A stretch of DNA of 24,000 nt from Pelomicrobium methylotrophicum (GCF_008014345.1 NZ_VPFL01000012.1:1-24000); one strand, 5' to 3'. Shown: positions 700 through 18,922, counted from the first letter of the stretch. The notes: generated from the sequence alone by a model not told the origin. Translations and numbers: made by a program.

Positions 700-808
700 C
701 CCAGTCTATTCGGCAAACCCCCGCTGGGGCGGGAGCTGTCAACCCGGCTTGATGCCGTGCCTGCCTTATTTGCAACTCAGTTTAGCACTGAGCTGCTGGT
801 TCATGGAA

Positions 809-879
809 TGGAGCGGACGGGACTCAACCCGCAACCAACAGGTTGGCGCCTGTTGCTCTCCCAGTTGAGCTACCGCCCC
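809..879 (-). tRNA. tRNA-like gene, non-canonical (possible pseudogene or atypical tRNA)
   Basis: The minus strand from 879 to 809 folds by hand as GGGGCGG TA GCTC AACTGGGA GAGC A ACAGG CGCCAA CCTGT TGGTT GCGGG TTGAGT CCCGT CCGCTCC A. The acceptor stem has 7 bp with G3:U70, and the D arm is canonical. Both the anticodon loop (CGCCAA, + strand 843-848) and the T loop (TTGAGT) have 6 nt instead of 7. No CCA is encoded. Confidence 0.5.
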
Positions 880-958
880 AGCGGACAGCGAATATCCGCC
901 CTCTCGCGCTTGTCAGGCGCACGGATATCAGCTGCTGCGGCTTTCCAGCCTCTACCGC

Positions 959-1165
959 TCAGATTGCTTTCCAGCCGGTGACCATTTGGGCGACCGGACG
1001 GCCGCGGCGGAAGATGGTCTTGCGTGCCACGAGGGCACGCTTGCCCCCGCCTTCGTAGAGGGTCAGGGTTCTTCCCTTGGTTCTGACTTCTCCCGTCTTG
1101 ACGAACGGGCCGGCGAAGAACTTTTGAATGCGGGGAGCGTAGCTTCCCCAGTTGACTGTTTTCAT
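959..1165 (-). CDS. Small hypothetical protein (68 aa), array gene 'a'
   Basis: ATG at 1163-1165 (minus strand) is preceded by AAGGAGG (reverse complement of 1171-1177). It translates MKTVNWGSYAPRIQKFFAGPFVKTGEVRTKGRTLTLYEGGG... The longer track ORF (to 1201) would read through the conserved leader. I recognise no family. Confidence 0.55.
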   Translation of the reverse strand: MKTVNWGSYAPRIQKFFAGPFVKTGEVRTKGRTLTLYEGGGKRALVARKTIFRRGRPVAQMVTGWKAI

Positions 1166-1167
1166 AT

Positions 1168-1232
1168 GGGCCTCCTTGTTGAACCGCCCGGAGAAGCCCA
1201 TCCCCCGTCCGGGGAAGGCTCCCCGGGCGGGG
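1168..1232 (-). promoter_or_regulatory. Conserved leader copy 1: SD-sequestering helix + palindrome P1
   Basis: In minus-strand RNA, GGGCUUCU (reverse complement of 1192-1199) pairs with the SD GGAGGCCC (reverse complement of 1168-1175): 8 bp including 2 G:U. P1 arms are CCCCGTCCGGGGA (1203-1215) and TCCCCGGGCGGGG (1220-1232), with loop AGGC. Confidence 0.6.
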
Positions 1233-1260
1233 TTGACAAAATCCGCGTCGCCGCTAATCT
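1233..1260 (+). promoter_or_regulatory. Sigma70-type promoter for X1 (TTGACA-16-TAATCT)
   Basis: TTGACA at 1233-1238 directly abuts P1. TAATCT is at 1255-1260, and the X1 ATG is 29 nt downstream. The same arrangement recurs at 1705-1732 and 2163-2190. Confidence 0.55.
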
Positions 1261-1288
1261 TCAGTCAGATTAAGCAAGGACGCACAAG

Positions 1289-1498
1289 ATGAAAAAATTT
1301 CAAGTCGTCGAAGGAAAACGCGAAGAGCTCCGTACGGAAGCTCTTTACGCGCTCTTTGACTATCTGCGCTCAGGCGACCAGGCGGCATCGAATCGCTTCG
1401 ATGCGATTGACAAACGCCTAGCTCGCCGAGCGGAGCTCAACGTTGTTGAAATCTCTCAATCTCCCACCGGGAGATCTTTTCCTCCTCGATTGCCCTGA
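1289..1498 (+). CDS. Small protein X1 (69 aa), paralog family MKKFQV(V/I)EG
   Basis: N-terminus MKKFQVVEGKREELRTEALYALF. It aligns with X3 (MKKFQVIEGSRQQMEQKAYEAF), and the DNA differences fall mostly at codon third positions (aaa/aag, caa/cag, gtc/gtt, gga/ggc). An AAGGA motif lies 9 nt upstream. The last 62 nt overlap gene Yb on the opposite strand. Confidence 0.6.
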   Translation: MKKFQVVEGKREELRTEALYALFDYLRSGDQAASNRFDAIDKRLARRAELNVVEISQSPTGRSFPPRLP

Positions 1499-1640
1499 TC
1501 ATCCGCCGGATGTCCCCGGCAAGGTCCCGGTCAGCGCAATTACTCAACTTCGCCTTTGCTTCTTCCAGAGCGAAATCGAGACCTTCATCCGTGGCCCGAT
1601 CGAGCCAACCATAAAAATCTTTCCAGAATTGCTTGTTCAT
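1437..1640 (-). CDS. Small helical protein Yb (67 aa), paralog family with Yc and Yd
   Basis: ATG at 1638-1640 is preceded by GGAGGAACC. It translates MNKQFWKDFYGWLDRATDEGLDFALEEAKAKL...IEEEKISRWEIERFQQR. It aligns without gaps to Yc/Yd over F..WL..A....L...L. Confidence 0.65.
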   Translation of the reverse strand: MNKQFWKDFYGWLDRATDEGLDFALEEAKAKLSNCADRDLAGDIRRMIRAIEEEKISRWEIERFQQR

Positions 1641-1704
1641 GGTTCCTCCGTTGATGCGCCCGAAGGAACCCATCCCCCGTCCGGGGAAGGCTCCCCGGGC
1701 GGGG
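1641..1704 (-). promoter_or_regulatory. Conserved leader copy 2: SD-sequestering helix + palindrome P1
   Basis: GGUUCCUUCG (reverse complement of 1661-1670) pairs with CGGAGGAACC (reverse complement of 1641-1650): 10 bp including 1 G:U, ending at the AUG. P1 arms are 1675-1687 and 1692-1704. Confidence 0.6.
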
Positions 1705-1732
1705 TTGACAAAACAAGCGTCTCCGCTAACCT
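1705..1732 (+). promoter_or_regulatory. Sigma70-type promoter for X2 (TTGACA-16-TAACCT)
   Basis: TTGACA is at 1705-1710, abutting P1. TAACCT is at 1727-1732. Confidence 0.5.
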
Positions 1733-1763
1733 GCATATCATCTATGCAGATCAGGACGACGAA

Positions 1764-1961
1764 ATGAACGAACTGAAGGTTATCGAGGGCGGCCGAAGGA
1801 TCCTGGAAGAAAAGCTGATCAAGCTTCTCTTCACCCCGGGGCCGGTCCCTTCTGACGAGGTCGAAAGGCTGAATGCCCGGCTTTCATCCCGGGCGAACCT
1901 CAAGATCGTTTCCGATCGCCGAGAGCCAGACGGGCCGCAATCTCCTCTTCGAGGAGGCTGA
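1764..1961 (+). CDS. Small protein X2 (65 aa), paralog of X1/X3
   Basis: ATG at 1764 has AGGA 7 nt upstream. It translates MNELKVIEGGRRILEEKLIKLLF...RLNARLSSRANLKIV. It shares the xxLKVIEGGR N-terminus and the RL..R..L segment with X1/X3. The last 62 nt overlap Yc. Confidence 0.5.
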   Translation: MNELKVIEGGRRILEEKLIKLLFTPGPVPSDEVERLNARLSSRANLKIVSDRREPDGPQSPLRGG

Positions 1962-2100
1962 TTCCCAGCCTCAGGTCTCTCAATCCCTCGCTGGATAGTT
2001 TTTTTTCGTGGAGCCTAAACAGCTCCAACCGCTCTTCAAGCTCATTCAGGCTTGCCTTTCCGAGCCAGCGCATGAACGAGCGCAGCACTTCCTTATCCAC
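1900..2100 (-). CDS. Small helical protein Yc (66 aa)
   Basis: GTG at 2098-2100 lies 5 nt after AGGAGG (reverse complement of 2105-2110). It translates VDKEVLRSFMRWLGKASLNELEERLELFRLHEKKL...LLEEEIAARLALGDRKRS. The longer track ORF would translate the palindrome. Confidence 0.6.
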   Translation of the reverse strand: MDKEVLRSFMRWLGKASLNELEERLELFRLHEKKLSSEGLRDLRLGISLLEEEIAARLALGDRKRS

Positions 2101-2162
2101 GGCATCCTCCTGATGCCCGGAGGAAGCCGCTTCCCCGTCCGGGGAAGGCTCCCCGGGCGGGG
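2101..2162 (-). promoter_or_regulatory. Conserved leader copy 3: SD-sequestering helix + palindrome P1
   Basis: GGCUUCCUCC (reverse complement of 2119-2128) pairs with GGAGGAUGCC (reverse complement of 2101-2110): 9 of 10 bp. P1 arms are 2133-2145 and 2150-2162. Confidence 0.6.
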
Positions 2163-2190
2163 TTGACAAAACCGGCGCCGCCGCTAATCT
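2163..2190 (+). promoter_or_regulatory. Sigma70-type promoter for X3 (TTGACA-16-TAATCT)
   Basis: TTGACA is at 2163-2168, abutting P1. TAATCT is at 2185-2190. Confidence 0.55.
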
Positions 2191-2215
2191 GCAACCATCA
2201 GCAGCGGAGACGGGA

Positions 2216-2410
2216 ATGAAGAAATTTCAGGTTATTGAAGGCTCCAGGCAGCAGATGGAACAGAAGGCTTATGAAGCGTTTTTGGAAAATGACTTCAAGA
2301 CCTTTTTTACAATCTGCCGCAGGATGGACAAAAGAGCCCGCCTCAGCGATGTAACCGGCGAAGCTCCTGGCGAGCCGCCAGCTCCTCGCGGATCATCTCC
2401 GCGGCCCTGA
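2216..2410 (+). CDS. Small protein X3 (64 aa), paralog of X1/X2
   Basis: It translates MKKFQVIEGSRQQMEQKAYEAFLEN...MDKRARLSDV. GGAG lies 7 nt upstream. The last 68 nt overlap Yd. Confidence 0.6.
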   Translation: MKKFQVIEGSRQQMEQKAYEAFLENDFKTFFTICRRMDKRARLSDVTGEAPGEPPAPRGSSPRP

Positions 2411-2537
2411 CCAATCCGGCGCGAATTTCTTCGTCGCCTTTCTTGAGGGCCTGCTCGATGGCGGCGAGCTTTTGGAGAAGCTCGTCATCACTGGCCTCGT
2501 TGCAGAAACGGGCCAGCATTTTGATTGCCTCCTTCAT
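2343..2537 (-). CDS. Small helical protein Yd (64 aa)
   Basis: ATG at 2535-2537 is preceded by GGGAGGAAACC. It translates MKEAIKMLARFCNEASDDELLQKLAAIEQALKKGDEE...IREELAARQELRRLHR. Confidence 0.65.
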   Translation of the reverse strand: MKEAIKMLARFCNEASDDELLQKLAAIEQALKKGDEEIRAGLVRAAEMIREELAARQELRRLHR

Positions 2538-2603
2538 GGTTTCCTCCCGACTTTTCCCCGGAGGAAACCGCTTCCCTGTCCGGGGAAGGCTCCCCGGACG
2601 GGG
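2538..2603 (-). promoter_or_regulatory. Conserved leader copy 4: SD-sequestering helix + palindrome P1
   Basis: GGUUUCCUCC (reverse complement of 2560-2569) pairs with GGAGGAAACC (reverse complement of 2538-2547): a perfect 10 bp ending at the AUG. P1 arms are CCCTGTCCGGGGA (2574-2586) and TCCCCGGACGGGG (2591-2603). Confidence 0.65.
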
Positions 2604-2618
2604 TTGAACAAAGGCCGT

Positions 2619-2695
2619 GACGGCTTCCGCCGCTCGGCCCACAAGCCCCGCGCGCGGCGGGGCGGACATTGCCGGGATGACCTCCCGGCAGGGTT
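2619..2695. repeat. 77-nt repeat, copy 1 (identical to 3475-3551)
   Basis: GACGGCTTCCGCCGCTCGGCCCACAAGCCCCGCGCGCGGCGGGGCGGACATTGCCGGGATGACCTCCCGGCAGGGTT. It contains two hairpins: GCCCCGC/GCGGGGC (2645-2663) and GCCGGGA/TCCCGGC (2671-2689). Confidence 0.9.
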
Positions 2696-2747
2696 GAATC
2701 AAGCTCTCCTTTCTGTGCCGTCCGCGCCGGCGTCATAGAAAGGAAAC

Positions 2748-2775
2748 TTGCATCGCGCGAAACGTATGCTAAAGT
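2748..2775 (+). promoter_or_regulatory. Candidate promoter for the basic small ORF (TTGCAT-16-TAAAGT)
   Basis: TTGCAT is at 2748-2753 and TAAAGT at 2770-2775. AAGGAGG at 2789-2795 precedes the ATG at 2802. Confidence 0.45.
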
Positions 2776-2801
2776 CAAGCCATCGAACAAGGAGGCTTTT
2801 C

Positions 2802-2957
2802 ATGATCTCCAAGAGAAAAACGCCAGCCCAAGCAAGGCCGAAAAAGATGCTCCGTCCGGTAGGAAAAACAAAGATTCCGTCGCTTGCAAATGTCAACGAA
2901 GAGCAAAAAGAAATCTTCGTCGAAGCCATTAGAAGAAACAAGAAGATAAAGATTTAG
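2802..2957 (+). CDS. Very basic small protein (51 aa), lower GC than surroundings
   Basis: A strong SD (AAGGAGG) lies 6 nt upstream. It translates MISKRKTPAQARPKKMLRPVGKTKIPSLANVNEEQKEIFVEAIRRNKKIKI. It is convergent with the PemK-like gene. Confidence 0.55.
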   Translation: MISKRKTPAQARPKKMLRPVGKTKIPSLANVNEEQKEIFVEAIRRNKKIKI

Positions 2958-3019
2958 AGCAAACCCCTCGACCCGTCTGCGCGCAATGCGCGGGCGAAGT
3001 CGCGGTGGTCTGCTCCTTT

Positions 3020-3394
3020 TTAGGCGAGCGGGAATCTTACCGCTCTGGCGGCGTTTTCGATCGCCAGTGCCTTCGTGTTGGGGAGCGCTTTGTAACTTCT
3101 CCCCTCCGAAATAACATCCTGGTCAAGAAACGCCACCAGGGATTGTCTCGAGAAACGAAGCACTCCTTCGCCCTCGAGCCCCACCGCCCTCGCCTCGGCA
3201 TCGGTCAGAGTGACTTCGACTTCACCCCTGACTTTTGCGGAGGACGAGAACTTCGCCGCGCCGATGTAAACCACATCCCCTTTCGGGGTTCTGGCGCGGC
3301 CAAGGATGAGGACGGGCCTTATTTTGTACCGCCCGTCTCCTTCTTGAAACGGAACCCTCGCCCTCACGAAGGTCCCTATCGGGACTGCATTCAT
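3020..3394 (-). CDS. PemK/MazF-like toxin-fold protein (124 aa), array gene 'e'
   Basis: ATG at 3392-3394 follows AAGGAGGAGCC. It translates MNAVPIGTFVRARVPFQEGDGRYKIRPVLILGRA...GDVVYIGAAKFSSS. The pattern (G.i..v.fP...g..K.RPvlvl) is typical of PemK/MazF SH3-like toxins. The track ORF extended to 3649 reads through the non-coding repeats. Confidence 0.75.
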   Translation of the reverse strand: MNAVPIGTFVRARVPFQEGDGRYKIRPVLILGRARTPKGDVVYIGAAKFSSSAKVRGEVEVTLTDAEARAVGLEGEGVLRFSRQSLVAFLDQDVISEGRSYKALPNTKALAIENAARAVRFPLA

Positions 3395-3459
3395 GGCTCC
3401 TCCTTTCATTGCCAGGAGGAAGCCTCCCCCGTCCGGGGAAAGGCTTCCACCAGACGGGG
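3395..3459 (-). promoter_or_regulatory. Conserved leader copy 5: SD-sequestering helix + degenerate palindrome P1
   Basis: GGCU(U)CCUCCU (reverse complement of 3414-3424) pairs with AGGAGGAGCC (reverse complement of 3395-3404): 10 bp with one bulge. The outer P1 stem is CCCCGTC (3427-3433) / GACGGGG (3453-3459), and the inner part is imperfect. Confidence 0.6.
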
Positions 3460-3474
3460 TTGAACAACGACCGG

Positions 3475-3551
3475 GACGGCTTCCGCCGCTCGGCCCACAA
3501 GCCCCGCGCGCGGCGGGGCGGACATTGCCGGGATGACCTCCCGGCAGGGTT
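3475..3551. repeat. 77-nt repeat, copy 2 (identical to 2619-2695)
   Basis: 77 of 77 identical by eye. It sits at the same distance from the downstream minus-strand start codon as copy 1 (157 vs 158 nt). Confidence 0.9.
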
Positions 3552-3704
3552 TGTGCCCCGATCTTAACCCCTTCCGCCTTATCGGCCGTCAGGAATGACG
3601 CATTTTCCACCTCATTTTTCGCCGACTTGCGAAGACTTTTCCGTCTCATTCTTTCTCCAGGCGGGCATGCGCCGGCCGATGACCGCGCGCCGGAAGCCCC
3701 GCCG

Positions 3705-3731
3705 TTGACTTTTGGTCTCGCGCGTTAAGAT
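3705..3731 (+). promoter_or_regulatory. Candidate promoter for the 3766-5006 operon (TTGACT-15-TAAGAT)
   Basis: TTGACT is at 3705-3710 and TAAGAT at 3726-3731. The 15-nt spacer is short. Confidence 0.35.
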
Positions 3732-3765
3732 CAATACGGGCGCGTCAAACGAGAAAGGGCAATCG

Positions 3766-3993
3766 ATGGAAATCTTCTACGAGAGCGAAAACCGGATTTC
3801 CGGCGCCGGTTTCGAAATCAGACTGAGAGGCGACCGGTGGTACTGGAGCGTCGCCAAATCCGTCCGGCCAGGCAGCCAGGGCGTCGCCTCTCACCTGGAG
3901 ATCGCAATTACAGAAGTTCGGCGTTGCCTGGGCGAGACAGGCGCATGCGCCGGCGGCAATGTCCGGCGGAACGGTTTGGGCTGGAGATCATGA
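3766..3993 (+). CDS. Hypothetical small protein (75 aa)
   Basis: ATG at 3766 follows GAGAAAGGG. It translates MEIFYESENRISGAGFEIRLRGDRWYWSVAK... Its stop overlaps the next start (ATGA at 3990-3993). Confidence 0.5.
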   Translation: MEIFYESENRISGAGFEIRLRGDRWYWSVAKSVRPGSQGVASHLEIAITEVRRCLGETGACAGGNVRRNGLGWRS

Positions 3994-4205
3994 TACAAAG
4001 CAGATGCAAGTGCGGAGAAGTCGTGCTTGTTGAAACCGGTCGATACGACTTGTGCCGACTGGACGGCAAGCGGCCCCATCATCCCGGAGATGGGCCGAAC
4101 ACGACGAGGTTCCGCTGCAGAAAATGCCTTGGCTGGCTGGCCGAAACCTGCGAGGAGGCGTCTTTTTCGACGGCGCAGGATTGTGGCAACGCATATCAAC
4201 CTTAA
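3990..4205 (+). CDS. Small Cys-rich (zinc-ribbon-like) protein (71 aa)
   Basis: ATGA coupling to the upstream ORF. It translates MIQSRCKCGEVVLVETGRYDLCRLDG...FRCRKCLGWLAETCEE, with a CxC ... CxxC arrangement. Confidence 0.55.
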   Translation: MIQSRCKCGEVVLVETGRYDLCRLDGKRPHHPGDGPNTTRFRCRKCLGWLAETCEEASFSTAQDCGNAYQP

Positions 4206-4329
4206 TTAACTCTCATCCCCGCTCTAACGGGGTAATGCACTCAGACACTTCGTTCGAAGGACATCCATGGGAACCAAAAGGAAAAACCGCTTCGTTTCGG
4301 CCTCTTCCGGCTGCCCTCAAGGGGATTAT

Positions 4330-5647: not shown

Positions 5648-5771
5648 CACTCTCTCCTTCAGGCCGATCGATCAATTCTACCGGTTCCATTAAAATACCG
5701 GCCTGGCGCGGCAAGCTTGCCGCCGCGCCATTCTGAGCTTTCGGACGTCCCAGCTTCGGCCATTGGGAGGC

Positions 5772-6359
5772 TCAAAAAAGCGCGTCCTCCGGCCGTCCGA
5801 GGGCTCGAAGCACGCGCTCCACATCAATGTTGACATCGATCGCCCGAAGCATGCCCTTGATTGATTCCATTGCGATCAGAAGCGCGCCATTTTCATCGAT
5901 GACGCGCCTCCTCACGAGGACGTGCCGAAGTCCAGCCCGCGCCCCCGGCGATCGGCACGCAATCTTTCTCGCGTCGCGGCACTCCAGAATCGCCATGATT
6001 CCTATCGCCCCCGACATCGGTTGGCAGTCCCAAAACGAAAAGTCTTCCCCAAGCAGAGCACTGCTTCGCTCCGGCGTGAGCGCGCCGTTACGCGCGAGAA
6101 GCAGCCACCGTGCGCATCGGACTATGATCTCTCCGGCGAGCCGCGCATCAGTCAGCACGACTGGATCCCAGCGCTCGTCGTCCACGAAACGCACCAGCCT
6201 GGACCGCCTACGCAGCCTTCGTGTCAGCTCTTCCCCTATCACGCCAAGCATTTCGGCATATGCGTTCTCGTCCTGATTGGACAAGCGGTATGGCATCCGC
6301 CAGGCTGGATTCTGCATTTTCAGCCGTCTTTCCATGTCGACACGATATTCTTCGTCCAT
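5772..6359 (-). CDS. Hypothetical protein (195 aa)
   Basis: ATG is preceded by GAGGAGACTTGAA. It is a long ORF with a non-repetitive composition. I recognise no family. Confidence 0.6.
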   Translation of the reverse strand: MDEEYRVDMERRLKMQNPAWRMPYRLSNQDENAYAEMLGVIGEELTRRLRRRSRLVRFVDDERWDPVVLTDARLAGEIIVRCARWLLLARNGALTPERSSALLGEDFSFWDCQPMSGAIGIMAILECRDARKIACRSPGARAGLRHVLVRRRVIDENGALLIAMESIKGMLRAIDVNIDVERVLRALGRPEDALF

Positions 6360-6995
6360 TTCAAGTCTCCTCGATTTGTCGGTCCGTTATGTCGGCACCT
6401 GTATATATGTCGACGAGGAAATCCATGGACCCCGGCTTTCTTGCCGTGCGTTCGGCTGGCGGCCTCCCGCGCCTGGCCTGATGCGTCCTCCGTTGCGATT
6501 GCCGGCGGATGACGGCTTCTTGCCGACCATGGCGCCTTAATCAAAAGACGCCCGTCCACCTCATGCCCCGCCCTTCGTGGCATATGATGGCCGTCCGCGG
6601 GCCCGCAGACCAATGGTTCCCTGGACGATGCGCATGCAACGGAGTCCGCGGTTTGCCGGGCATCCCACCTGGCGCCTCTTTGGGAGATGACGCCCAAAGA
6701 TGCCCAAGAACGACTCAAGATCGACTTGGCGCTCTTCAACAAGAAACGGCGGCCGGCTGGCTCCTCTTCTCTACAACGCCCAGCGCCCCAACCATCGCCT
6801 GGGGCAACAAGCGCCCCTACAATTCCTCCTCCAACATCAACCCCGGCGCCAGAGGTGCTGGACTCATATCTTCAGCCCAAAGAGGATGTTAGTTGAAAGA
6901 TTTCCAGATCGGCCTCCATTGGCTAAAACCCAGGCTTGCATGCAGCGCGGTTTATGATGTAATGGCGCAGACTGAGGTTTCATCGTCGGCGCGGC

Positions 6996-7381
6996 ATGGA
7001 AATAAAGGAAACCCGAAAAAAAGACGGAACCCGCGAATGGAGGTTTTGCGGCAAACTCCACCGCGTGGACGGCCCGGCTGTTGAAAAGGCCGATGGCACG
7101 AGGGAGTGGTGGCGGGAAGGCAAGTTGCACCGCAAACACGAGCCTGCAGTAGAAAGCCTGATGGGACTAAAGAATGGTGGAGGCATGGCAAGCTGCACCG
7201 CATTCTCGCTCCGTCAGTAGAGCGTCCGGATGGCACGAAAGAATGGTGGCGGTTTGGCAAGCGCCATCGGGAGGATGGGCCGGCTGTAGAAAAGGCCGAC
7301 GGCACGAAGGAATGGTGGGTCGATGGACGGAGGCTCGATCCGATCGAATTCATAGCGTTGCGTTGCACCGGCCCTTCCTGA
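6996..7381 (+). pseudogene. MORN-repeat protein, frameshifted
   Basis: There are five 23-aa repeats (DGT[RK]EWW..GKLHR.DGPAVEKA). Reading switches from the frame of 6996 to the frame of 7157 at 7152-7159. The sequence there is GAAAGCCTGAT, where the paralogous repeat junctions read GAAAAGGCCGAT, so it is one base short. The first frame stops at 7218-7220. Confidence 0.7.
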
Positions 7382-7513
7382 CGGCCGGCCGGAGACCTCG
7401 GCGACGGCCGCCATCCGCGCCCGCAAAAGGAGACGGTTGGACGTGCAGAGCATGGAGCATGGAGGCCGCCTTCGAATCCGTTTGAGCGACTGGCCGTTTT
7501 CGTCTAATATTAT

Positions 7514-7525
7514 GTGAACGTTCAC
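7514..7525. promoter_or_regulatory. Perfect 12-bp palindrome GTGAACGTTCAC between a TAATAT -10-like box and the methyltransferase start
   Basis: GTGAAC|GTTCAC is at 7514-7525, TAATAT at 7505-7510 and the ATG at 7536. This position fits an operator. Assigning it as one is inference. Confidence 0.4.
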
Positions 7526-7535
7526 GAAGAAAAAC

Positions 7536-8555
7536 ATGGACGACACAGCAGTTCTACGCCAGAGAAAACGCCTGGAGCGGTTGGCGAAAAGAGGAATAAA
7601 GCGCAGCACTGTCATGGTGCACGATGCCTGTCGCTCTGCGCTGGATGCGCTTCGACCCCACTATATCGATCCATCAAGTGCGCAGGCTCTGCAAAGAGCC
7701 GCCGTAATCGTAAAGAGCGAGACGAGGCTCGTTAACGTAGCGCAGGTCAGGCAACTAAGTCCTTTCCGTTACCCTGGCGGAAAGACATGGCTCGTGCCAG
7801 AGGTAAAAACGTGGTTGCGATCGTTGCCCCGGCGACCGTCGATTTTTCTGGAACCATTTGCTGGAGGCGCGATCGTCGGTCTGACGGTGGCCGCAGAAAG
7901 CATGGCCGGCAAGGTCATACTGTGCGAGCTTGATGATTCAGTTGCAGCTGTCTGGAAAACGCTGATTCACGGAACCGACACGGACGCGAATTGGCTATGT
8001 GATCGGATCCTCAAATTCGAGGTCACGGAAGACAACGTGCGATCATTGCTTGAAAAAAAAGTCAAAAGCGACAGGGAAAGGGCTTTTCAGACCATCGTTC
8101 GAAACCGCATGCAGCGCGGCGGCATCCTGGCTCCAGGCGCTTCTCTGATGAAGTCTGGCGAGAACGGAAGGGGCCTGGGATCGAGGTGGTATCCGGAAAC
8201 GTTGGTTTCCAGAATCAAGGCTATTCGGAACATCAGACACAGAATTGAGTTCCGACACCAGGACGCCTTTGATCTTATCAAAGAATACACTGCCAAGAAC
8301 GATGTCGCCTGGTTTGTGGATCCTCCTTACACGGCCGGCGGAAAGCGAGCTGGAGCGCGCCTCTATACACACACGCAGATAGATCACGACAGACTGTTTC
8401 GGGAGATGTCCTGCACAAAAGGAGATGTATTGATGACTTATGATGATGCGCCCGAAGTCGCGCATCTTGCGGAACGATATGGAATGGGCATTAGAAAAGT
8501 GCCTATGAAAAGCACGCACCACGCGATCATGTACGAACTTCTTTTATCAAAATAG
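7536..8555 (+). CDS. N6-adenine DNA methyltransferase, Dam/D12 class, with ~75-aa N-terminal extension
   Basis: Motifs present: FRYPGGK, EPFAGGA and VDPPYT, in the order typical of Dam-like (alpha group) m6A methyltransferases. The region has lower GC than its flanks. Confidence 0.9.
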   Translation: MDDTAVLRQRKRLERLAKRGIKRSTVMVHDACRSALDALRPHYIDPSSAQALQRAAVIVKSETRLVNVAQVRQLSPFRYPGGKTWLVPEVKTWLRSLPRRPSIFLEPFAGGAIVGLTVAAESMAGKVILCELDDSVAAVWKTLIHGTDTDANWLCDRILKFEVTEDNVRSLLEKKVKSDRERAFQTIVRNRMQRGGILAPGASLMKSGENGRGLGSRWYPETLVSRIKAIRNIRHRIEFRHQDAFDLIKEYTAKNDVAWFVDPPYTAGGKRAGARLYTHTQIDHDRLFREMSCTKGDVLMTYDDAPEVAHLAERYGMGIRKVPMKSTHHAIMYELLLSK

Positions 8556-9506
8556 TTTGATGACCTTCTTACGCTTATTTGAGGCTTTTTCTATCAAGTC
8601 GTTTAGTTGAGACGTGAATCGGTTGGCCGGAATGGGAAGCGCAGCTTCAACGGCTTTGACGGAGCTGATTAGAGTTGTGTAATGCTCATTTACTACCTTT
8701 GCACACTCTCCAGGCCGAAGATCAACAACGAACCAAACTATTTGTGACAAAGCGAGCTTCTCAAGGCGCAGTTCTTCGTCGTTCATGCCGTCGCAGTTTA
8801 CGCTGACCTCCTCGAGTTCAGCCATTTGGCTGCGAACGTATGTATCCACGATGACGGCCAGGTATTTGCCACTGCCCAAGTATGGCGCTTTCAACATCAA
8901 TTGGGGTGACAAACGTTTCGGAACCGAGCTGCGATAATCCGGCCTTCGCCGCGCAACAGGCATTGTCAGTTCTCCGCCGGCTGAGATAATGGCATCGAAT
9001 TCTATTTTCATGTTGCGTCCAGAAAAATAGACGGACTGCGTTTCGACAGCGCACCATCTCTTACGATCAATGTTGTCGACGAGCACAAAGTCGAGGCGCC
9101 CTGCCTTTGCGCCGATGAATTGACTATTTGCCGCCGCATTCTGAAGAAAAGGGACCTCGCGCACCAAATAGACCTCGTCAGAGCCAAGGATGGCTTTCCC
9201 TATGCGCTTGAAAACCTCTGGCTCAAGCAGTCTCGAAGGGCAGAGAGAAACAATGTCTTGCGAAACATTTGGCAGATTGTCGTCAGTCGACTGTGTATAT
9301 AGCGCGATGCTGCATACCCCTCCGTTTTTATTGCACATCATGGGCCTGCCAAACAGTCTCGTGCGATATGGGCATTCGAGATTTGCAACTTTATGCGTTA
9401 GTTTTGCTTTATGAGCGAATTCAAGGCGGTCATTGGCGGTCATGGAGACAATTGGCCTGCCGAACCACTCCGAGATTCCATACTTTATGGCAACCATTTC
9501 TTGCAT
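8547..9506 (-). CDS. Type II restriction endonuclease, NotI-family-like
   Basis: It is convergent with the methyltransferase and overlaps it by 9 nt. The N-terminus reads SEWFG ... CPYRTRLFGRPMMCNKNGGVCSI ... LCPSR, and later ETQSVYFSG. From memory this resembles the NotI Cys cluster and the E.Q...F.G core. It shares the low-GC island. Confidence 0.7.
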   Translation of the reverse strand: MQEMVAIKYGISEWFGRPIVSMTANDRLEFAHKAKLTHKVANLECPYRTRLFGRPMMCNKNGGVCSIALYTQSTDDNLPNVSQDIVSLCPSRLLEPEVFKRIGKAILGSDEVYLVREVPFLQNAAANSQFIGAKAGRLDFVLVDNIDRKRWCAVETQSVYFSGRNMKIEFDAIISAGGELTMPVARRRPDYRSSVPKRLSPQLMLKAPYLGSGKYLAVIVDTYVRSQMAELEEVSVNCDGMNDEELRLEKLALSQIVWFVVDLRPGECAKVVNEHYTTLISSVKAVEAALPIPANRFTSQLNDLIEKASNKRKKVIKLF

Positions 9507-9955
9507 AGTAGGAATATATTGTTTTTTCTAAAGAATTTTTTGTTGGAACGATTCTACAGAACGAGGAAGTGCGCTCATAATGCCACGTTTTTGCGAAACT
9601 CGGGATCGATTCGGCTGCCCATCGTTCAGTTCAACCGTAGCCATCGATTCGTACCGAAAGGATTGTGCAGTCCCTTTTCTGCCGATTCCGTGGCGCCTGG
9701 AATGACGGGGTTTACGGGTCGAGACAGAAACAGCCCTTGAACTTACTCCTCGCGCCACTCGGCCATCCAGGCAGAGATGAGCCGGAGGCAGTCATCGTGT
9801 CCGGGAAAACGCTCCGCCAAGCCGGGCCGATCACGGCGCTCATACGGCATGTTCACCTCGAATGCGGAGGTGCGCTTCCCTGGCGTCATGGCGCGACGCA
9901 AACGCAGTTTGAGGAGCGGTGCGGACTTAGGCGGTTGTGATGTCCTGGAGCGACC

Positions 9956-11188
9956 ATGCGGATTCTGAACCGCCGCCATCTCGTCTCCCCCTGGCCGGCG
10001 CACGCGGTCTGGGTAGGCCGTCCGACGCCGCTGGGGAATCCTTTCGTCATCGGCCGGGACGGCTCGCGCGAGGAGGTGATCGCGCGCTACCGCGAGTGGC
10101 TCGAGGCCAGGATCCGGGAGCGCGACCCGGCGGTGCTGACCGCGATGGCGGGTCTGCGCGAAGACTCTTCTCTGGTGTGCGCCTGCGCCCCCGAGCCCTG
10201 CCATGCGGAAGCGATCCGGGAAGCCTGGATGAAGCATTTCAGGGACGGAATCGTGGTGCGTCCGGCCTACCATGAGGATGGCTCCATACCCCTCGACGGC
10301 GAAGTGTTCGTGTTCGGCTCGAACCTGGCCGGCCGGCATGGGGCGGGGGCGGCGGCGGAAGCCTTCGACCGTTTCGGCGCGCGCCGGGGCGTGGGCGAGG
10401 GCTACATGGGCGAGCCGCCCCGGCACTGTTACGCCATCCCGACCAAGGACGAGCGGCTTGCCGTCCTGTCGCTGGACAAAATCGCCGCGGCGGTCGGGCG
10501 GTTTGTTGAGTTCGCGGCCTCGCGCCCCGAACTGCGCTTCTTCGTCACCCGCGTCGGCTGCGGCCTGGCGGGGTACCGGGACGAGCAAATCGCGCCGCTT
10601 TTCGCTGGCGCGCCGCTTGCCCGGTGCAGCTTTCCCCGGCCGTGGCGCAGGTATTTGGAGCCGCGCTCGATGGCCTACGCCGGCGGCGGCGCTCGCCACG
10701 CCCCGCTTCCCGTCCTGCGCAGGATGACCCGCATCGCGCAGCGGCTGGAGGCGCGCGGCTACGTGCTGCGGACCGGCGGCGGCAACGACACGGACAGCGC
10801 CTTCGAGGCCGGGTGCGCGAAGAAGGAAGTGTTTCTGCCCTGGCCCGGCTTCAACGGACGCACTTCGGCCTTCGATTCGGTGTCCGAGGAGGCGCTGGCG
10901 GTGGCGAGCGCGGCGCACCCGGCGTTTCGCAGGCTCACGGCGGAGGCGCGGCTGCTGGCGGGGCGGGAAAGCCACCGCATCCTGGGGGCGGACCTGCGCA
11001 CGCCGGCCGATTTTCTCGTCTGCTGGACGCCGGACGGCGCGCAATCGGAGGCGGAGATCGGGCGGGAGACGGGAGAGGCCGCGTTGGCCATCGCGCTCGC
11101 CGACCGCTGGGCGGTCCCCGTGTTCAACCTCGCCCGGGCGGACGCGCTGGAGCGGCTGGCGGCGCTTTTGGATGTTGCTGCAGGATGA
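9956..11188 (+). CDS. Three-domain fusion: DUF4326 + A1S_2505-like phage domain + SLOG/DprA-like Rossmann domain (410 aa)
   Basis: aa 1-95: VWVGRPTPLGNPF...ARYREWL...LVCACAPEPCHAE (DUF4326 pattern). aa ~105-235: VFVFGSNLAGRHGAGAAAEA...YAIPTKD...VTRVGCGLAGYRDEQIAPLF (A1S_2505-like). aa ~240-410: GYVLRTGGGNDTDSAFEAG...FLPWPGFNG...VCWTPDG (DprA/SLOG-like). GGAG lies 6 nt upstream of the ATG. Confidence 0.8.
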   Translation: MRILNRRHLVSPWPAHAVWVGRPTPLGNPFVIGRDGSREEVIARYREWLEARIRERDPAVLTAMAGLREDSSLVCACAPEPCHAEAIREAWMKHFRDGIVVRPAYHEDGSIPLDGEVFVFGSNLAGRHGAGAAAEAFDRFGARRGVGEGYMGEPPRHCYAIPTKDERLAVLSLDKIAAAVGRFVEFAASRPELRFFVTRVGCGLAGYRDEQIAPLFAGAPLARCSFPRPWRRYLEPRSMAYAGGGARHAPLPVLRRMTRIAQRLEARGYVLRTGGGNDTDSAFEAGCAKKEVFLPWPGFNGRTSAFDSVSEEALAVASAAHPAFRRLTAEARLLAGRESHRILGADLRTPADFLVCWTPDGAQSEAEIGRETGEAALAIALADRWAVPVFNLARADALERLAALLDVAAG

Positions 11189-11203
11189 GGCTCAGTATAG
11201 GCG

Positions 11204-11740
11204 ATGGAGATCAGGCCGAATGCGATCCTTACGCGCCGGGTAAGGGGCCTCTATGGCCCGTCAGGCGCCTTGTTTCTCGTCCTTTCGCTGCTTTCGGCGC
11301 CTTTGAGCCTCGTGCTGGACGGCCCGAAGATGCTCGCGCCAGGCGCCGCCGTAGGCCTCCTTATGCTGGGGTGCGGCCTGTGGGCAAGGGCCTACAGCGG
11401 CGGCATTCCGGAATGCATGACGCTGGAAGGCGACAGGCTCAGAATCGTCTGGCCGGACGGGAAAATCGATCTCCTTCCGCTCGATGACCTCATGATTGGA
11501 AAGCGCGGCCTGCTGGCCGGATCCCGCTGGGTGGCTTTCTACGCGAAGTTTCGCGGCAGACCCTATGAGCCGCTGTACGACGCGCAAGCCCTCGGGCCGC
11601 TTTTTCTTCGGGCGCCGGAAGCGGGCGCCGTGGAATTCTTTCTGGAGGGCTTGAAGCGCGGCGCGCTCATGTGCTGGGGGCAAGCGCTCATCTGGACGGG
11701 CGCGGCCGCCGCCATCGCGGCCCGGATGGCCATCCTCTAG
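11204..11740 (+). CDS. Membrane protein (2 N-terminal TM segments, beta-rich middle, C-terminal hydrophobic tail)
   Basis: Hydrophobic segments are ALFLVLSLLSAPLSLVL, AAVGLLMLGCGLWA and a C-terminal ALIWTGAAAAIAARMAIL. It starts 16 nt after the fusion gene. The SD is weak and the start is uncertain. Confidence 0.5.
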   Translation: MEIRPNAILTRRVRGLYGPSGALFLVLSLLSAPLSLVLDGPKMLAPGAAVGLLMLGCGLWARAYSGGIPECMTLEGDRLRIVWPDGKIDLLPLDDLMIGKRGLLAGSRWVAFYAKFRGRPYEPLYDAQALGPLFLRAPEAGAVEFFLEGLKRGALMCWGQALIWTGAAAAIAARMAIL

Positions 11741-17015: not shown

Positions 17016-17914
17016 GTCAGCCTCCAATCACACCCTTGCCCACCGGCGGCACTCCAGGCAGCCGCCACGCCTCCCCTCGCAGTCAGCGACGTTTCGATCC
17101 GGACGGCAGGCATGCGGGGACATGTCCACCGTGCGCATGAAAAGCGCTCCAGCCGGCCTCGACCGGCTGTCGGTCGGCTCATTTGTCAAGCGCCCGCCGT
17201 GAGCGCCATCAATTCCTGAACCGCCGCAGCGGCCTCCCGCGCACTGCCCGACCTCACCCGGCGCAGAGCCCCAATCCATCGGGGACGGCTCAAGCTCGAT
17301 CAGGCGGCCCATCGCACGCCTTGGGCGCGGGATTCAAGATTTCTTCAGTGGCGAGATTTGCTGAAACGTCGCCTCCAGGGCTTAAAAAATCCTTTTGCCC
17401 TCGGAAGCTACGTCGCAACCCTCACCCTTCAGTGTTACTCATTCAGTCTTCCGCCAACGCGATGACGCCTTCTGGGAGATCACCGCGGTCTCCACTCCCA
17501 AGACTGCAGAGCAGGCTTCGCAAGGTGGAAGGCGGAAAACCGATGAGACGCCGCCCTGCAGGCAGCGAGACGATGCCGGGAGACCTCCCGGCGGGGTGAA
17601 ACCTCCGCTGCAAAGCCGAAGATCAGGGTTCGCAGCGCGGGGAAGGGATCCTTGTGATCTGCCGTGACGGTAGCAGATTTTTCTCGGACCGACTCGGCCA
17701 AAAGCGTGCATCGAACCCAACGCTTTCGCCGGGTTCCAGGGCGGCGGATCCAGGAAAATGCGTCTGCCGTGTCCGGTTCTCGCCGCTCTTTCAAGGCGTT
17801 GGGAATTTCCCGGCACGGGGCTGCCGGTTGAGCGCCCATTTTTTGAGGTCCTGTTCTTTTTTGGGCGCCCAGACGGCGATTTGAGACCGGATTATTCGCA
17901 GGAGGTTGACCCGC

Positions 17915-18922
17915 TTGGAAAAATTCATCGTCCGATCCGTCGATGTCGGCTACGGCTACACCAAGTTCGTCCTGGGCCGAACCCCGCAGGGCGACTATGT
18001 CTGCGAGAGCTTTCCGTCGGTGGTGGCCTTCGCCCAGAAAAAGACCCTGGGCGGTGGGTTCTTCGCCGAACGATCCACCCTCACGGTGTTGCACAACGGG
18101 GTCGAGTACGAGGTTGGGCCCGACGTGCTGCTCGCCACCGGCGCTTATGGATCTAGGAACCTCGATCTCGGCTACGTCCAGACCGACACCTACCAGATCC
18201 TGCTCAAGGGGGCGCTCAAGCGCATCGGGCTGCCCAGGATCGACGTGCTGGTGCTCGGCGCGCCGGTGGCCACCTACGATCAGGCGAGGGAGCACCTTCG
18301 GCGCGCCTTCAGCGGCAGGATCGCGCTGGACCGCGCCCAGGAGGTCGTCGTGGGCAAGGTCCTGGTGCTGCCCCAGCCCCTCGGAGGCTATGCCTGGCAC
18401 GGGCATGTCAGCGGCTCCTACGGCCGCATCCGCAGCCAGCTCAATCTCCTGATCGACCCCGGTTACTTCACCCTGGATTGGCTGGTCGCCCGGGGCACCA
18501 CCATCGCCCCGGCGAGAAGCGGCAGCCACCCGGCCGGCATGTCGGCGCTGGTGCGCGCCATCGCCTCGGAGATTTCCCGGGAGACGGGCGAGGAGGTCAC
18601 GAGCCTTCTGCTGTGGGAGTCGATCGAACGCGCCCTCTACGCCGAGGAGCCCCTGCACCTGGACGGCCGCCCCTACGACCTCACGCGCCATCTGGGGGCG
18701 GTGAACCAGCTGCTCGCTCAGGCCGCGGAGGTGCTTGCCTCCAGGGTGGGCGACGCCAAGGACATTCAGAACGTGATCCTGGTCGGAGGGCCGGCGAGGC
18801 TCTATGAGCCGGCGTTGAAGCGGGCGCTCCATGGCAAGCTGATCCAGATCGCGCAGGACCCGCAGTTTGCCAACGTGAAGGGCTTCCAGCGCGTGGGCGA
18901 AGACATCGCGGAGCGGCTGTGA
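17915..18922 (+). CDS. parM: ParM/StbA-family actin-like segregation ATPase
   Basis: It contains SVDVGYGYTKF ... LIDPGYFTLDW ... VILVGGPA, the actin-fold phosphate-1, phosphate-2 and adenosine motifs. The TTG at 17915 lies 9 nt after AGGAGG (17900-17905). The track start at 17906 abuts the SD. Confidence 0.8.
   Translation: MEKFIVRSVDVGYGYTKFVLGRTPQGDYVCESFPSVVAFAQKKTLGGGFFAERSTLTVLHNGVEYEVGPDVLLATGAYGSRNLDLGYVQTDTYQILLKGALKRIGLPRIDVLVLGAPVATYDQAREHLRRAFSGRIALDRAQEVVVGKVLVLPQPLGGYAWHGHVSGSYGRIRSQLNLLIDPGYFTLDWLVARGTTIAPARSGSHPAGMSALVRAIASEISRETGEEVTSLLLWESIERALYAEEPLHLDGRPYDLTRHLGAVNQLLAQAAEVLASRVGDAKDIQNVILVGGPARLYEPALKRALHGKLIQIAQDPQFANVKGFQRVGEDIAERL

Follow-up and report, generated by a model that had tools for sequence, protein, structure and literature searches.

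A repeated two-hairpin leader before five small genes of a Pelomicrobium methylotrophicum mobile island: a candidate shared translational lock

Introduction

What does one and the same structured element do at the starts of five different small genes of a mobile island? The question is raised by a stretch of 24,000 nt from Pelomicrobium methylotrophicum (GCF_008014345.1 NZ_VPFL01000012.1:1-24000), which we refer to as the window. Its array at 959-3651 contains an element of about 80 bases in five copies, and every copy adjoins the start of its own small orphan gene on the minus strand. These genes are gene a, the related genes Yb, Yc and Yd, and a gene for a MazF-like protein. Interspersed with them on the plus strand are three further genes, X1, X2 and X3, and a basic open reading frame (ORF) of 51 aa. 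An earlier note on this DNA had described the array as one conserved structured leader placed before small genes that are not all related, with plus-strand paralogs driven by promoters in between, and our analysis bears this description out. The feature is real, structured, in part strand-specific and unannotated. Beyond the earlier note, the 3' half of the element is predicted to form a hairpin between the Shine-Dalgarno (SD) sequence and an anti-SD segment, which covaries with each gene, and the invariant hairpin of the 5' half seems to contain a decoy SD. The explanation that we prefer, with about even confidence, is a reused two-sided control module, copied with the five small genes or grafted onto them, which would act as a shared translational lock on toxin-like or anti-defence cargo.

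For comparison, we used sister metagenome contigs of the same island (labelled L0xx), which are 85-96% identical where codon substitutions were counted. The evidence on the fold of the leaders consists of computed RNA folding, the RNAalifold consensus and covariation scores. The stability of the two strands was compared in 15 variants, and hairpin arms were swapped among the 5 window copies or among 8 variants.

Five copies of one leader

A repeat finder places the 16-nt core of the element at 1201, 1673, 2131, 2572 and 3425, and the resulting spacings (472, 458, 441 and 853 nt) reproduce those of the earlier note; a 56-nt repeat family covers copies 1-4. The pattern GTCCGGGGAA-N6-18-GRCGGGGTTGA is matched five times, against 0.00 matches expected in shuffled sequences. 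A covariance model (CM) of the leader, which the earlier note had proposed, was built from 13 variants and run over the 24 kb with filters off. It recovers the five array copies, all on the minus strand (66-94 bits, E<=5.5e-17), and nothing further at E<0.8 except palindromes read on the opposite strand. All copies end at the start codon of a minus-strand ORF, at the same distance in each, in agreement with the earlier claim that every copy lies directly 5' of such an ORF. The copies are listed below with the coordinates of their CM matches; P1 and P2 are the two predicted hairpins of the element.

1160-1241, minus strand: leader E1 (84.8 bits); P1 at 1203-1232; P2 predicted to reach the AUG of gene a at 1165
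1635-1713, minus strand: leader E2 (93.5 bits); P1 at 1675-1704; P2 predicted to cover the ribosome-binding site (RBS) and AUG of Yb
2095-2171, minus strand: leader E3 (76.3 bits); P1 at 2133-2162; P2 predicted to cover the RBS and GUG of Yc
2532-2612, minus strand: leader E4 (80.7 bits); P1 at 2574-2603; P2, of 10 bp, predicted to cover the RBS of Yd
3389-3468, minus strand: leader E5 (66.6 bits), the most divergent copy; P2 predicted to cover the RBS of the MazF-like gene

The leader belongs to no RNA family that we searched and, within the 24 kb, is confined to the array. Rfam gave 0 matches at E<=5 in 880-3800 with permissive filters, and a tRNA as the sole match over the 24 kb. When one genome per species was scanned with the pattern, 16 single matches turned up in unrelated phyla, all of which proved to be chance on inspection; three matches in IMG/VR are assumed to be chance as well. 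A BLAST search of region 900-3700 against plasmids returned no match. A sixth, weak CM match in two sister contigs, L026 and L033 (23 bits), was dismissed, as it falls in the terminator region behind a tRNA and has no gene start.

Fold of the minus-strand leaders

On the minus strand, four of the five copies are predicted to fold into two hairpins, P1 followed by P2, with z-scores of -3.3 to -4.4. P1 is a GC hairpin of 12 bp, nearly invariant among the copies; it forms a 12-6-12 palindrome, lies 35-45 nt upstream of the AUG and is separated from P2 by a linker of 2-4 nt. P2 is gene-specific. In it, the anti-SD segment CUUCCUCC and 3-5 gene-specific bases are predicted to pair with GGAGG, the SD, and with the spacer that leads to the start codon, and a short outer stem frequently extends into the first codons. 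The variable bases of the two sides (anti-SD side/spacer side) are GGGC/GCCC, GGUU/AACC, GGCU/UGCC, GGUUU/AAACC and GGC/GCC. A P2 is predicted for each of the five copies; in copy 1, the fold of lowest energy is the alternative hairpin considered in the next section. These folds suggest that each leader, as RNA, may hide the RBS of its own gene, and that one common signal could keep five unrelated genes silent.

Several properties of P2 point to pairing in a minus-strand RNA. In each of the 15 variants, the minus-strand form of P2 is more stable than the plus-strand form (for E2, -16.8 vs -10.7 kcal/mol; in a further example, -26.0 vs -20.4 kcal/mol), because a G.U pair on the minus strand would be an A.C mismatch on the plus strand. 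When arms were exchanged between copies, the cognate combination of 5' and 3' arms ranked first among the 120 permutations of the five window copies, and with eight variants the p-value was 0.0008. Two-sided changes occur in five of nine P2 pairs, as counted on an alignment of related sequences that was fitted to the structure. The covariation score of P2 is 0.209, compared with 0.152+-0.012 for shuffled controls (0/500 reach it) and 0.057-0.158 for slid partners. The predicted, covarying P2 hairpins amount to SD sequestration of the kind by which type I toxin mRNAs are recognised.

P1 varies little. In E4, one C-G pair is replaced by U-A, a compensatory change, and in E5 the stem is rebuilt from different bases. 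In one sister contig (L037 4-84, corresponding to window 2574-2603), the loop of the copy-4 P1 is flipped from AGCCUU to AAGGCU, both imperfect arms being unchanged.

An alternative hairpin and a possible switch

In P1, the sequence of the 5' arm and loop (CCCGGGGAGCC) is similar to an SD region and complementary to the anti-SD. The RNAalifold consensus structure is the one in which the P1 5' arm pairs with the anti-SD, and this arm, with its two possible partners, is the most invariant segment of the element. The alternative to P1 and P2 is one long hairpin centred on GGACG, in which the real SD is free. If the SD and AUG are forced open, the long hairpin is the best fold in most copies, at a cost of 1-18 kcal/mol. 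Relative to P1+P2, the cost is 1-2 kcal/mol for gene a and 13-16 kcal/mol for Yc, Yd and the MazF-like gene; in E3, opening of the SD costs 15.6 kcal/mol. Two independent substitutions, G>A in copy 2 of L027 and C>A in copy 4 of L021, weaken P1 and gain A-U pairs in the alternative helix.

From these models we infer that the leader might be a three-part switch (decoy SD, anti-SD, real SD), and that it would be OFF by default. By default, P2 would pair the anti-SD with GGAGG and the spacer, leaving the gene untranslated. If the P1 5' arm (CCCGGGGAGCC) captured the anti-SD instead, the long hairpin would form and the real SD would be exposed. Opening of P1, or capture of its 3' arm, would thus turn the gene ON, and stabilisation of P1 would keep it OFF. 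Given the large energy gaps, a trans-acting factor would be needed for switching, and since P1 is common to all copies, one trans-acting protein or RNA would set five genes together.

This idea can be taken further, to a point where we consider it rather improbable. The combination of decoy SD, anti-SD and real SD might be a portable translational lock with a common key, a control cassette of a new class in mobile elements that could be placed before any gene whose product is harmful or time-critical. All copies would then be opened by a single RNA or protein that the island supplies in trans, for example on entry into a new host, and the convergent coding mRNA would double as an antisense RNA. 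The array would represent a new architecture of TA-like (toxin-antitoxin-like) or anti-defence regulon, with orphan proteins throughout.

The plus strand

On the other side of P1, copies 1-3 adjoin promoter-like sequences that face the X genes. In copies 4 and 5, this place is taken by a repeat, R.

1233-1260, plus strand: P(X1), promoter-like, TTGACA-16-TAATCT, directly abutting P1; 9/12 matches
1705-1732, plus strand: P(X2), promoter-like, TTGACA-16-TAACCT, followed by the inverted repeat CTGCATA-N5-TATGCAG (7-9 bp)
2163-2190, plus strand: P(X3), promoter-like, TTGACA-16-TAATCT
2604-2695, no strand assigned: repeat R, copy 1, three GC-rich hairpins, beside E4 in the place of an X promoter
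3460-3551, no strand assigned: repeat R, copy 2, beside E5

All three putative promoters have a perfect -35 hexamer (TTGACA) and a spacer of 16 nt. Their -10 hexamer, TAAYCT, agrees with the consensus at 3/6 positions (9/12 in total), and they do not pass a stricter promoter scan, so the earlier description of them as near-consensus went too far. They are nonetheless the sole sigma-70-like sites in the array. TTGACA begins 0-1 nt after the end of P1; copies 4 and 5 read TTGAAC at this position, and R replaces the X promoter. R folds into three GC hairpins on either strand. Its two copies share a core of 77 nt that is exactly identical (2619-2695 and 3475-3551), as the earlier note had stated, and that lies within a repeat of 102 nt with 96% identity.

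Behind the X2 promoter of L021 (1130-1190) comes a perfect inverted repeat, ATCTGCATA-N5-TATGCAGAT, which overlaps the end of the -10 hexamer and looks operator-like. Its window counterpart lies within 1705-1760, and the counterparts at X1 and X3 are weak. A hairpin behind the -10 of the X promoters was not counted among the conserved RNA structures: it is convincing for X2 alone and would be partly transcribed at most.

There is no terminator between the stop codons of the X genes and the next element. A terminator-like hairpin at 1459-1475 was dismissed, since it lies inside X1 and is absent from L022. P1 may have a second activity in plus-strand RNA, for instance at the 3' end of X transcripts that have passed the antisense of the next Y, or it may act as DNA.

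Genes and proteins of the array

The genes of the array are as follows.

959-1165, minus strand: gene a, 68 aa, isoelectric point (pI) 11.8; no family match
1289-1498, plus strand: X1, 69 aa, basic; its last 62 nt overlap Yb
1437-1640, minus strand: Yb, 67 aa, helical, pI 5.1
1764-1961, plus strand: X2, 65 aa; 62-nt overlap with Yc
1900-2100, minus strand: Yc, 66 aa, GTG start; absent from L021-L023
2216-2410, plus strand: X3, 64 aa; 68-nt overlap with Yd
2343-2537, minus strand: Yd, 64 aa
2802-2957, plus strand: basic ORF of 51 aa, pI 11.2, with RBS AAGGAGG and promoter-like TTGCAT-16-TAAAGT
3020-3394, minus strand: MazF-like gene, 124 aa, probably a remote PemK/MazF-superfamily protein

X1, Yb and gene a are real coding genes, because their substitutions concentrate at third codon positions. 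By codon position (1/2/3), X1 shows 7/8/19 substitutions against L022 and 0/0/3 against L029, Yb shows 14/5/18, and gene a shows 5/2/10 against L029. Yb, Yc and Yd are divergent paralogs (26-33% pairwise identity), as are X1, X2 and X3 (29-38%), both in line with the earlier note. The X proteins are basic (pI 9.4-9.7), the Y proteins acidic to neutral and gene a very basic. None of the nine proteins has a hydrophobic segment, the maximum 15-residue Kyte-Doolittle mean being <=0.89. Each X overlaps the next Y tail to tail (by 62, 62 and 68 nt), and the overlapping tails of the X proteins, rich in Pro, Gly and Ser, look like a by-product of reading the C-terminal helix of Y in antisense.

Homology searches gave no family of known function. 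The products of a, X1-3, Yb-d, the 51-aa ORF and a 75-aa ORF have no match in Pfam, PHROGs, NCBIfam or PADLOC, and PDB sequence searches with a, X and Y returned noise. A model of the gene a product (predicted local distance difference test, pLDDT, of 78) shows one helix packed on a four-stranded sheet; its fold search gave nothing significant (best E=0.67), and there is a weak match to 7jta (TM-score 0.53-0.63, E=1.4). The possibility that X is a ribbon-helix-helix (RHH) protein was rejected after hhalign of the X profile against RHH proteins found nothing.

The MazF-like protein had been called PemK/MazF-like in the earlier note. On its own it falls under the Pfam cut-off (PemK/MazF, E=0.11), and the relation becomes apparent through its family: this comprises about nine 50%-identity clusters among 1.8 billion representatives, of which 7/9 match PemK_toxin (best E 3.2e-06). 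Searched against PDB sequences, the family profile matches MazF, PemK and EndoA best, with full-length alignments and E-values of 0.08-0.45. We accept the 124-aa protein as a probable remote member of the PemK/MazF superfamily on these profile matches. An AlphaFold2 model of it reached a pLDDT of 51, and fold search with it was not used. Directly upstream of the gene there is no antitoxin gene, just the non-coding E5 and R. The 51-aa ORF converges on it across a gap of 62 nt, and the two are present or absent together in sister contigs.

Two long minus-strand ORFs that pass through R and the leader, 3020-3649 (209 codons) and 2343-2702 (119 codons), were rejected as coding. The stretch through R and the leader is non-coding because the frames of R differ in its two copies and the upstream ORF stops early in L022; that these ORFs are open through R is probably an effect of GC-rich sequence free of stop codons.

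Distribution and turnover

Protein searches with the X profile, the Y profile and the MazF-like protein retrieve the same island only. The island is found in about 20 short metagenome contigs and in one NCBI metagenome-assembled genome labelled Azospira oryzae, in which the annotation pipeline called the five minus-strand genes and not the X genes. BLAST searches of plasmids with the MazF-like protein and gene a gave no match, and IMG/VR holds no relatives of a or X. In metagenomes, the MazF-like protein has one true homologue (43% identical), encoded at L039 547-1010. It is the sole full-length relative there and is solitary, with no antitoxin gene upstream; it has its own hairpin-rich leader (ATCCCCC...GGGGGAT adjoining GGAG) and a clean terminator. 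A set of 24 actinobacterial PemK-domain proteins was dismissed as relatives, as they have an N-terminal motif alone in common with the MazF-like protein and no such leader.

Within this lineage, comparison of the contigs shows the turnover of the array to be fast and mosaic. One contig is without an 856-bp module (the 51-aa ORF, the MazF-like gene, E5 and R), lost between two direct repeats of 145 nt. Three contigs (L021-L023) are without 1900-2183, that is, Yc and E3; the junction lies at an AACCT/AATCT microhomology with the -10 of P(X3). In L022 (1587-2018), and likewise in L021 and L023, this deletion fuses X2 in frame to X3, giving an ORF of 143 aa. Between the window and L022, a block at about 1181-1738 (E1, X1, Yb, E2 and P(X2)) is about 15% diverged, and the flanking gene a and X2 are near-identical. 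These breakpoints lie outside the palindrome, which argues against site-specific cassette recombination.

Weighing the explanations

If the element is a shared translational lock, its minus strand would be the 5' leader of the downstream gene, and on the plus strand of copies 1-3 a sigma-70-type promoter beside P1 would drive the X gene. X would run head-on into the next Y and overlap its 3' end. Each Y would then be locked at its 5' end and subject to antisense transcription at its 3' end, because the leader lock and the convergent X overlap occur together. Silencing at both ends would suit genes that are harmful or time-critical, for example toxin-like or anti-defence cargo, and the presence of a MazF-like member and the rapid, mosaic turnover agree with this.

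Some of our observations weigh against a shared lock on the minus-strand RNA. P1 differs from P2 in that its plus-strand form is the more stable one in 11 of 15 variants, which speaks for a function in plus-strand RNA or DNA and not in the leader. A single lineage supplied all the variants, so that their number is small and they are related, and the pair counts come from the structure-fitted alignment. Copy 4 has no good alternative hairpin, and in three copies the ON state costs 13-16 kcal/mol, which makes spontaneous switching unlikely. No sigma-70-like promoter for the five minus-strand genes was found in 880-3800, and this is the chief weakness of the model. Among the 40 window ORFs scanned there are no helix-turn-helix (HTH) or RHH Pfam domains, and no candidate regulator was recognised. 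Finally, no array protein has a demonstrated or confidently inferred function.

Two other explanations survive in part. One of them takes X1/Yb, X2/Yc, X3/Yd and the 51-aa ORF/MazF-like gene as cis-antisense pairs of the type I TA kind. The X mRNAs would be antisense to the whole Y mRNA and end at the next P1, and the leader hairpins would be kissing or target structures; FinP acting on traJ and SR4 acting on bsrG are parallels. The convergent overlap of 62-68 nt in all three X/Y pairs agrees with this, as does the absence of a terminator from the X stop to the next element, the sole candidate (1459-1475) being missing from L022. The greater plus-strand stability of P1, which is due to G.U pairs, is what would be expected of a structure that closes plus-strand transcripts, and the P1 loop of one strand is exactly complementary to that of the other. 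Type I toxin mRNAs typically have a sequestered SD, and the block that has diverged between lineages carries X1 and Yb together. However, the Y, a and MazF-like proteins are hydrophilic and lack a membrane segment, and the X genes are protein-coding genes under purifying selection, not plain antisense RNAs. P1 is followed by TTGACAAAA, with no U-tract. For gene a there is a leader and no convergent partner, the two genes of the MazF-like pair lie 62 nt apart without overlap, and the identical P1 before unrelated genes is left unexplained. As the main explanation of the array, antisense pairing is in our view unlikely.

The other treats P1 as double-stranded DNA, namely a 12-6-12 palindromic operator for one regulator of the island, placed on the upstream side of the -35 of the X promoters, in the manner of a kil/kor- or Aca-style regulon (Aca, anti-CRISPR-associated). 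Formation of the RNA hairpin would be of secondary importance, or else the regulator would be used a second time there, as Aca1 and Aca2 are. In all copies the palindrome ends 0-1 nt before the TTGACA position. The mismatches among P1 variants fall on either strand, so that no strand is favoured throughout (in copies 1 and 2 of L021, a plus-strand A.C corresponds to a minus-strand G.U), and the loop inversion with unchanged arms in one contig is neutral for a DNA site. Aca proteins have been reported to act on repeated DNA and RNA motifs before up to three neighbouring operons (PMC13551039). On the other hand, no HTH or RHH protein is recognised in the window, copies 4 and 5 keep P1 though R replaces the X promoter, and a 12-bp arm entirely of G and C is unusual for an operator. 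The covarying P2 is not accounted for, and the operator could be part of the story at best; our confidence in it is about as low as in antisense pairing. Both may be complementary to the lock rather than exclusive of it.

Recombination sites of the attC type, in an integron-like cassette array with no integrase in view, are a far less probable explanation and are largely refuted. It is true that small orphan genes are separated by structured palindromes at intervals of 441-853 nt, that some sister contigs have entire modules which others lack, and that GTTGAAC (GTTRRRY) follows the palindrome in copies 4 and 5. Yet there is no inverse core site RYYYAAC, and copies 1-3 read GTTGACA. The element stands at the 5' end of the gene and includes its own covarying RBS, and the genes lie on both strands. 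The 1900-2183 deletion junction (from X2 to the -10 of P(X3)) is at microhomology away from the palindrome, the MazF module was lost between direct repeats as in ordinary homologous recombination, and neither end of the diverged block, at about 1181 and about 1738, falls in an element. Nor does the 24 kb contain IntI, its recombinases being a serine recombinase and the weakly Integrase_1/XerC-like tyrosine recombinase 12 kb away.

Equally remote, in our estimate, is a selfish or generic repeat, whether a repetitive extragenic palindrome (REP), a bacterial interspersed mosaic element (BIME) or a miniature inverted-repeat transposable element, or a single-strand DNA promoter of the Frpo type from conjugative leading regions. 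Repeated Frpo-like promoters before different leading-region genes have been described (PMC11541004) and provide a precedent. The repeat is GC-rich and palindromic, the context may be conjugative in view of the PRTRC_D homologues described below, and no double-strand promoter was found for the minus-strand genes. The earlier note had allowed that the leader might be a generic REP/BIME repeat, but there are five copies in 24 kb, none of them outside the array and all at the same distance from a start codon, and the scan of one genome per species, which did not extend to the complete genome of the host, gave no true matches. As to Frpo, single-strand DNA folds of both strands leave TTGACA and the spacer unpaired with no long promoter-mimicking duplex, and the other flank contains no reverse complement of the -35/-10 region. 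A tandem antitoxin RNA like that of type III ToxIN was rejected, since 700-4300 contains no tandem array beyond two chance rows of 9-10 nt.

If a shared lock is indeed what the array represents, it would be a natural example of one modular RNA switch (decoy SD, anti-SD and real SD) reused before unrelated genes, and would show how mobile elements silence risky cargo and then release it in coordination. Nine orphan small proteins (a, X1-3, Yb-d, the 51-aa ORF product and the deviant MazF relative) would become candidates for toxins, antitoxins or anti-defence proteins, and the leader could serve as a compact part for synthetic translation control. The reach of these conclusions is limited for now, because the system is found in one island lineage only, and the mechanism is incomplete.

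Comparison with known systems

The earlier note held that the architecture matches no known system. This stands insofar as no searchable RNA or protein family was found; as a statement about principles it was too strong, for the logic of the locus parallels both type I toxin mRNAs and Aca regulons. We file the locus as a parallel of these two and as a member of no named family.

In Aca control, a DNA inverted repeat and an RNA stem-loop near the RBS recur before up to three neighbouring anti-defence operons, and both transcription and translation are repressed (PMC13551039). Like the loci of Aca1, Aca2 and Aca14, our array repeats one motif before several small, unrelated, fast-evolving genes of a mobile element, with an inverted repeat at a promoter and a stem-loop in the 5' untranslated region close to the RBS; the five copies, each with a predicted P2 over the RBS, agree with the same motif standing before several operons. 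A further likeness is the gene of the DUF1874/AcrIII-1 family beside the array in a sister contig. Unlike in Aca loci, no Aca-like HTH or RHH gene is recognised here. With about 80 nt and two hairpins the motif far exceeds theirs in size, and it is rich in GC; RNA-RNA pairing would by itself conceal the RBS, and a decoy SD is part of the leader. Each of the five copies serves a single gene, and the promoter next to the palindrome is directed away from the gene that would be locked. Lastly, no known anti-CRISPR (acr) gene is present, although no dedicated search with an anti-defence library was made; weak hints of anti-defence cargo are the DUF1874-family gene of the sister contig and the 7jta match of gene a.

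Among type I TA systems, bsrG/SR4 and txpA/RatA have convergent RNAs that overlap at their 3' ends, and the mRNAs of hok, tisB and zorO have a locked RBS. The array resembles them in that the SD of small genes is predicted to be sequestered by an upstream anti-SD, that a convergent partner overlaps the 3' end (here as an overlap of genes), and that it is borne by a mobile element in several paralogous copies. It differs in that the partner is a conserved protein-coding gene, that the locked proteins, of 64-124 aa, are hydrophilic, with no small hydrophobic membrane toxin among them, and that the same leader serves unrelated genes.

The traJ mRNA of F-like plasmids, the target of FinP, has a 5' leader with two stem-loops and the RBS, whose loops are open to kissing. 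Our leader likewise combines two stem-loops with the RBS and has loops available for a complementary RNA, but it contains no antisense promoter, and the sole plus-strand promoter from which such an antisense RNA could come is about 400 nt away. The kil/kor regulon of IncP plasmids co-represses potentially harmful genes through a palindromic site at many promoters. The array shares with it the repetition of one palindromic site, whereas no KorA, KorB or ParB homologue is seen, and the site lies upstream of the -35 of the divergent gene and is coupled to a putative lock at the RNA level. With MazEF and PemIK, finally, the array shares its fifth gene, a probable remote member of their superfamily. 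In contrast to these systems there is no upstream antitoxin in the same operon, and the L039 homologue is also solitary behind a structured leader.

The surrounding island

The earlier note had placed the array in a mobile-element context, and its neighbours support this. The window includes genes for a DksA/TraR protein, a DUF4326/A1S_2505 protein, an SRAP protein, a large serine recombinase and a tyrosine recombinase, the last with a weak Integrase_1/XerC match and 12 kb from the array. A restriction-modification pair consists of a D12-class adenine methyltransferase (7536-8555, plus strand) and a NotI-family endonuclease (8547-9506, minus strand), which converge and overlap by 9 nt at their 3' ends. 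The actin-like protein PRTRC_D (17906-18922, plus strand) scores above the curated cut-off, and 1161 of 1451 of its plasmid homologues are on conjugative plasmids; no other PRTRC component was recognised among the ORFs neighbouring it.

Adjoining the array is a tRNA gene (808-880, minus strand) with an Rfam score of 47 bits, which ARAGORN cannot name. Compared with the tRNA-Asp(GTC) of L026 and L029, it is missing a base in the anticodon loop (CUGUCAA becomes CGCCAA), which changes the anticodon from GUC to GCC and removes U33, and it is also one base short in the T-loop. This is not a read error, because the same variant is found in the independent assemblies L021-L023. The gene may be a pseudo-tRNA or encode an unusual tRNA.

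In L026 (749-1444), and also in L033, an insertion of about 700 bp lies between the secretion-ATPase gene and the tRNA (window about 672-738). It carries a tRNA-Val(GAC) and a STIV_B116-like/DUF1874 gene of the AcrIII-1 ring-nuclease family, and a duplicated stretch of about 65 bp, in which the tRNA terminator lies, flanks it. The DUF1874 gene beside the array gives the neighbourhood an anti-defence flavour and proves nothing about the array itself. L026 is without the methyltransferase/NotI-like pair (window 7536-9506, inside the compared stretch 5723-9864), and its segment 6736-8598, which contains the DUF4326/A1S_2505 gene, is inverted relative to window 9864-11726.

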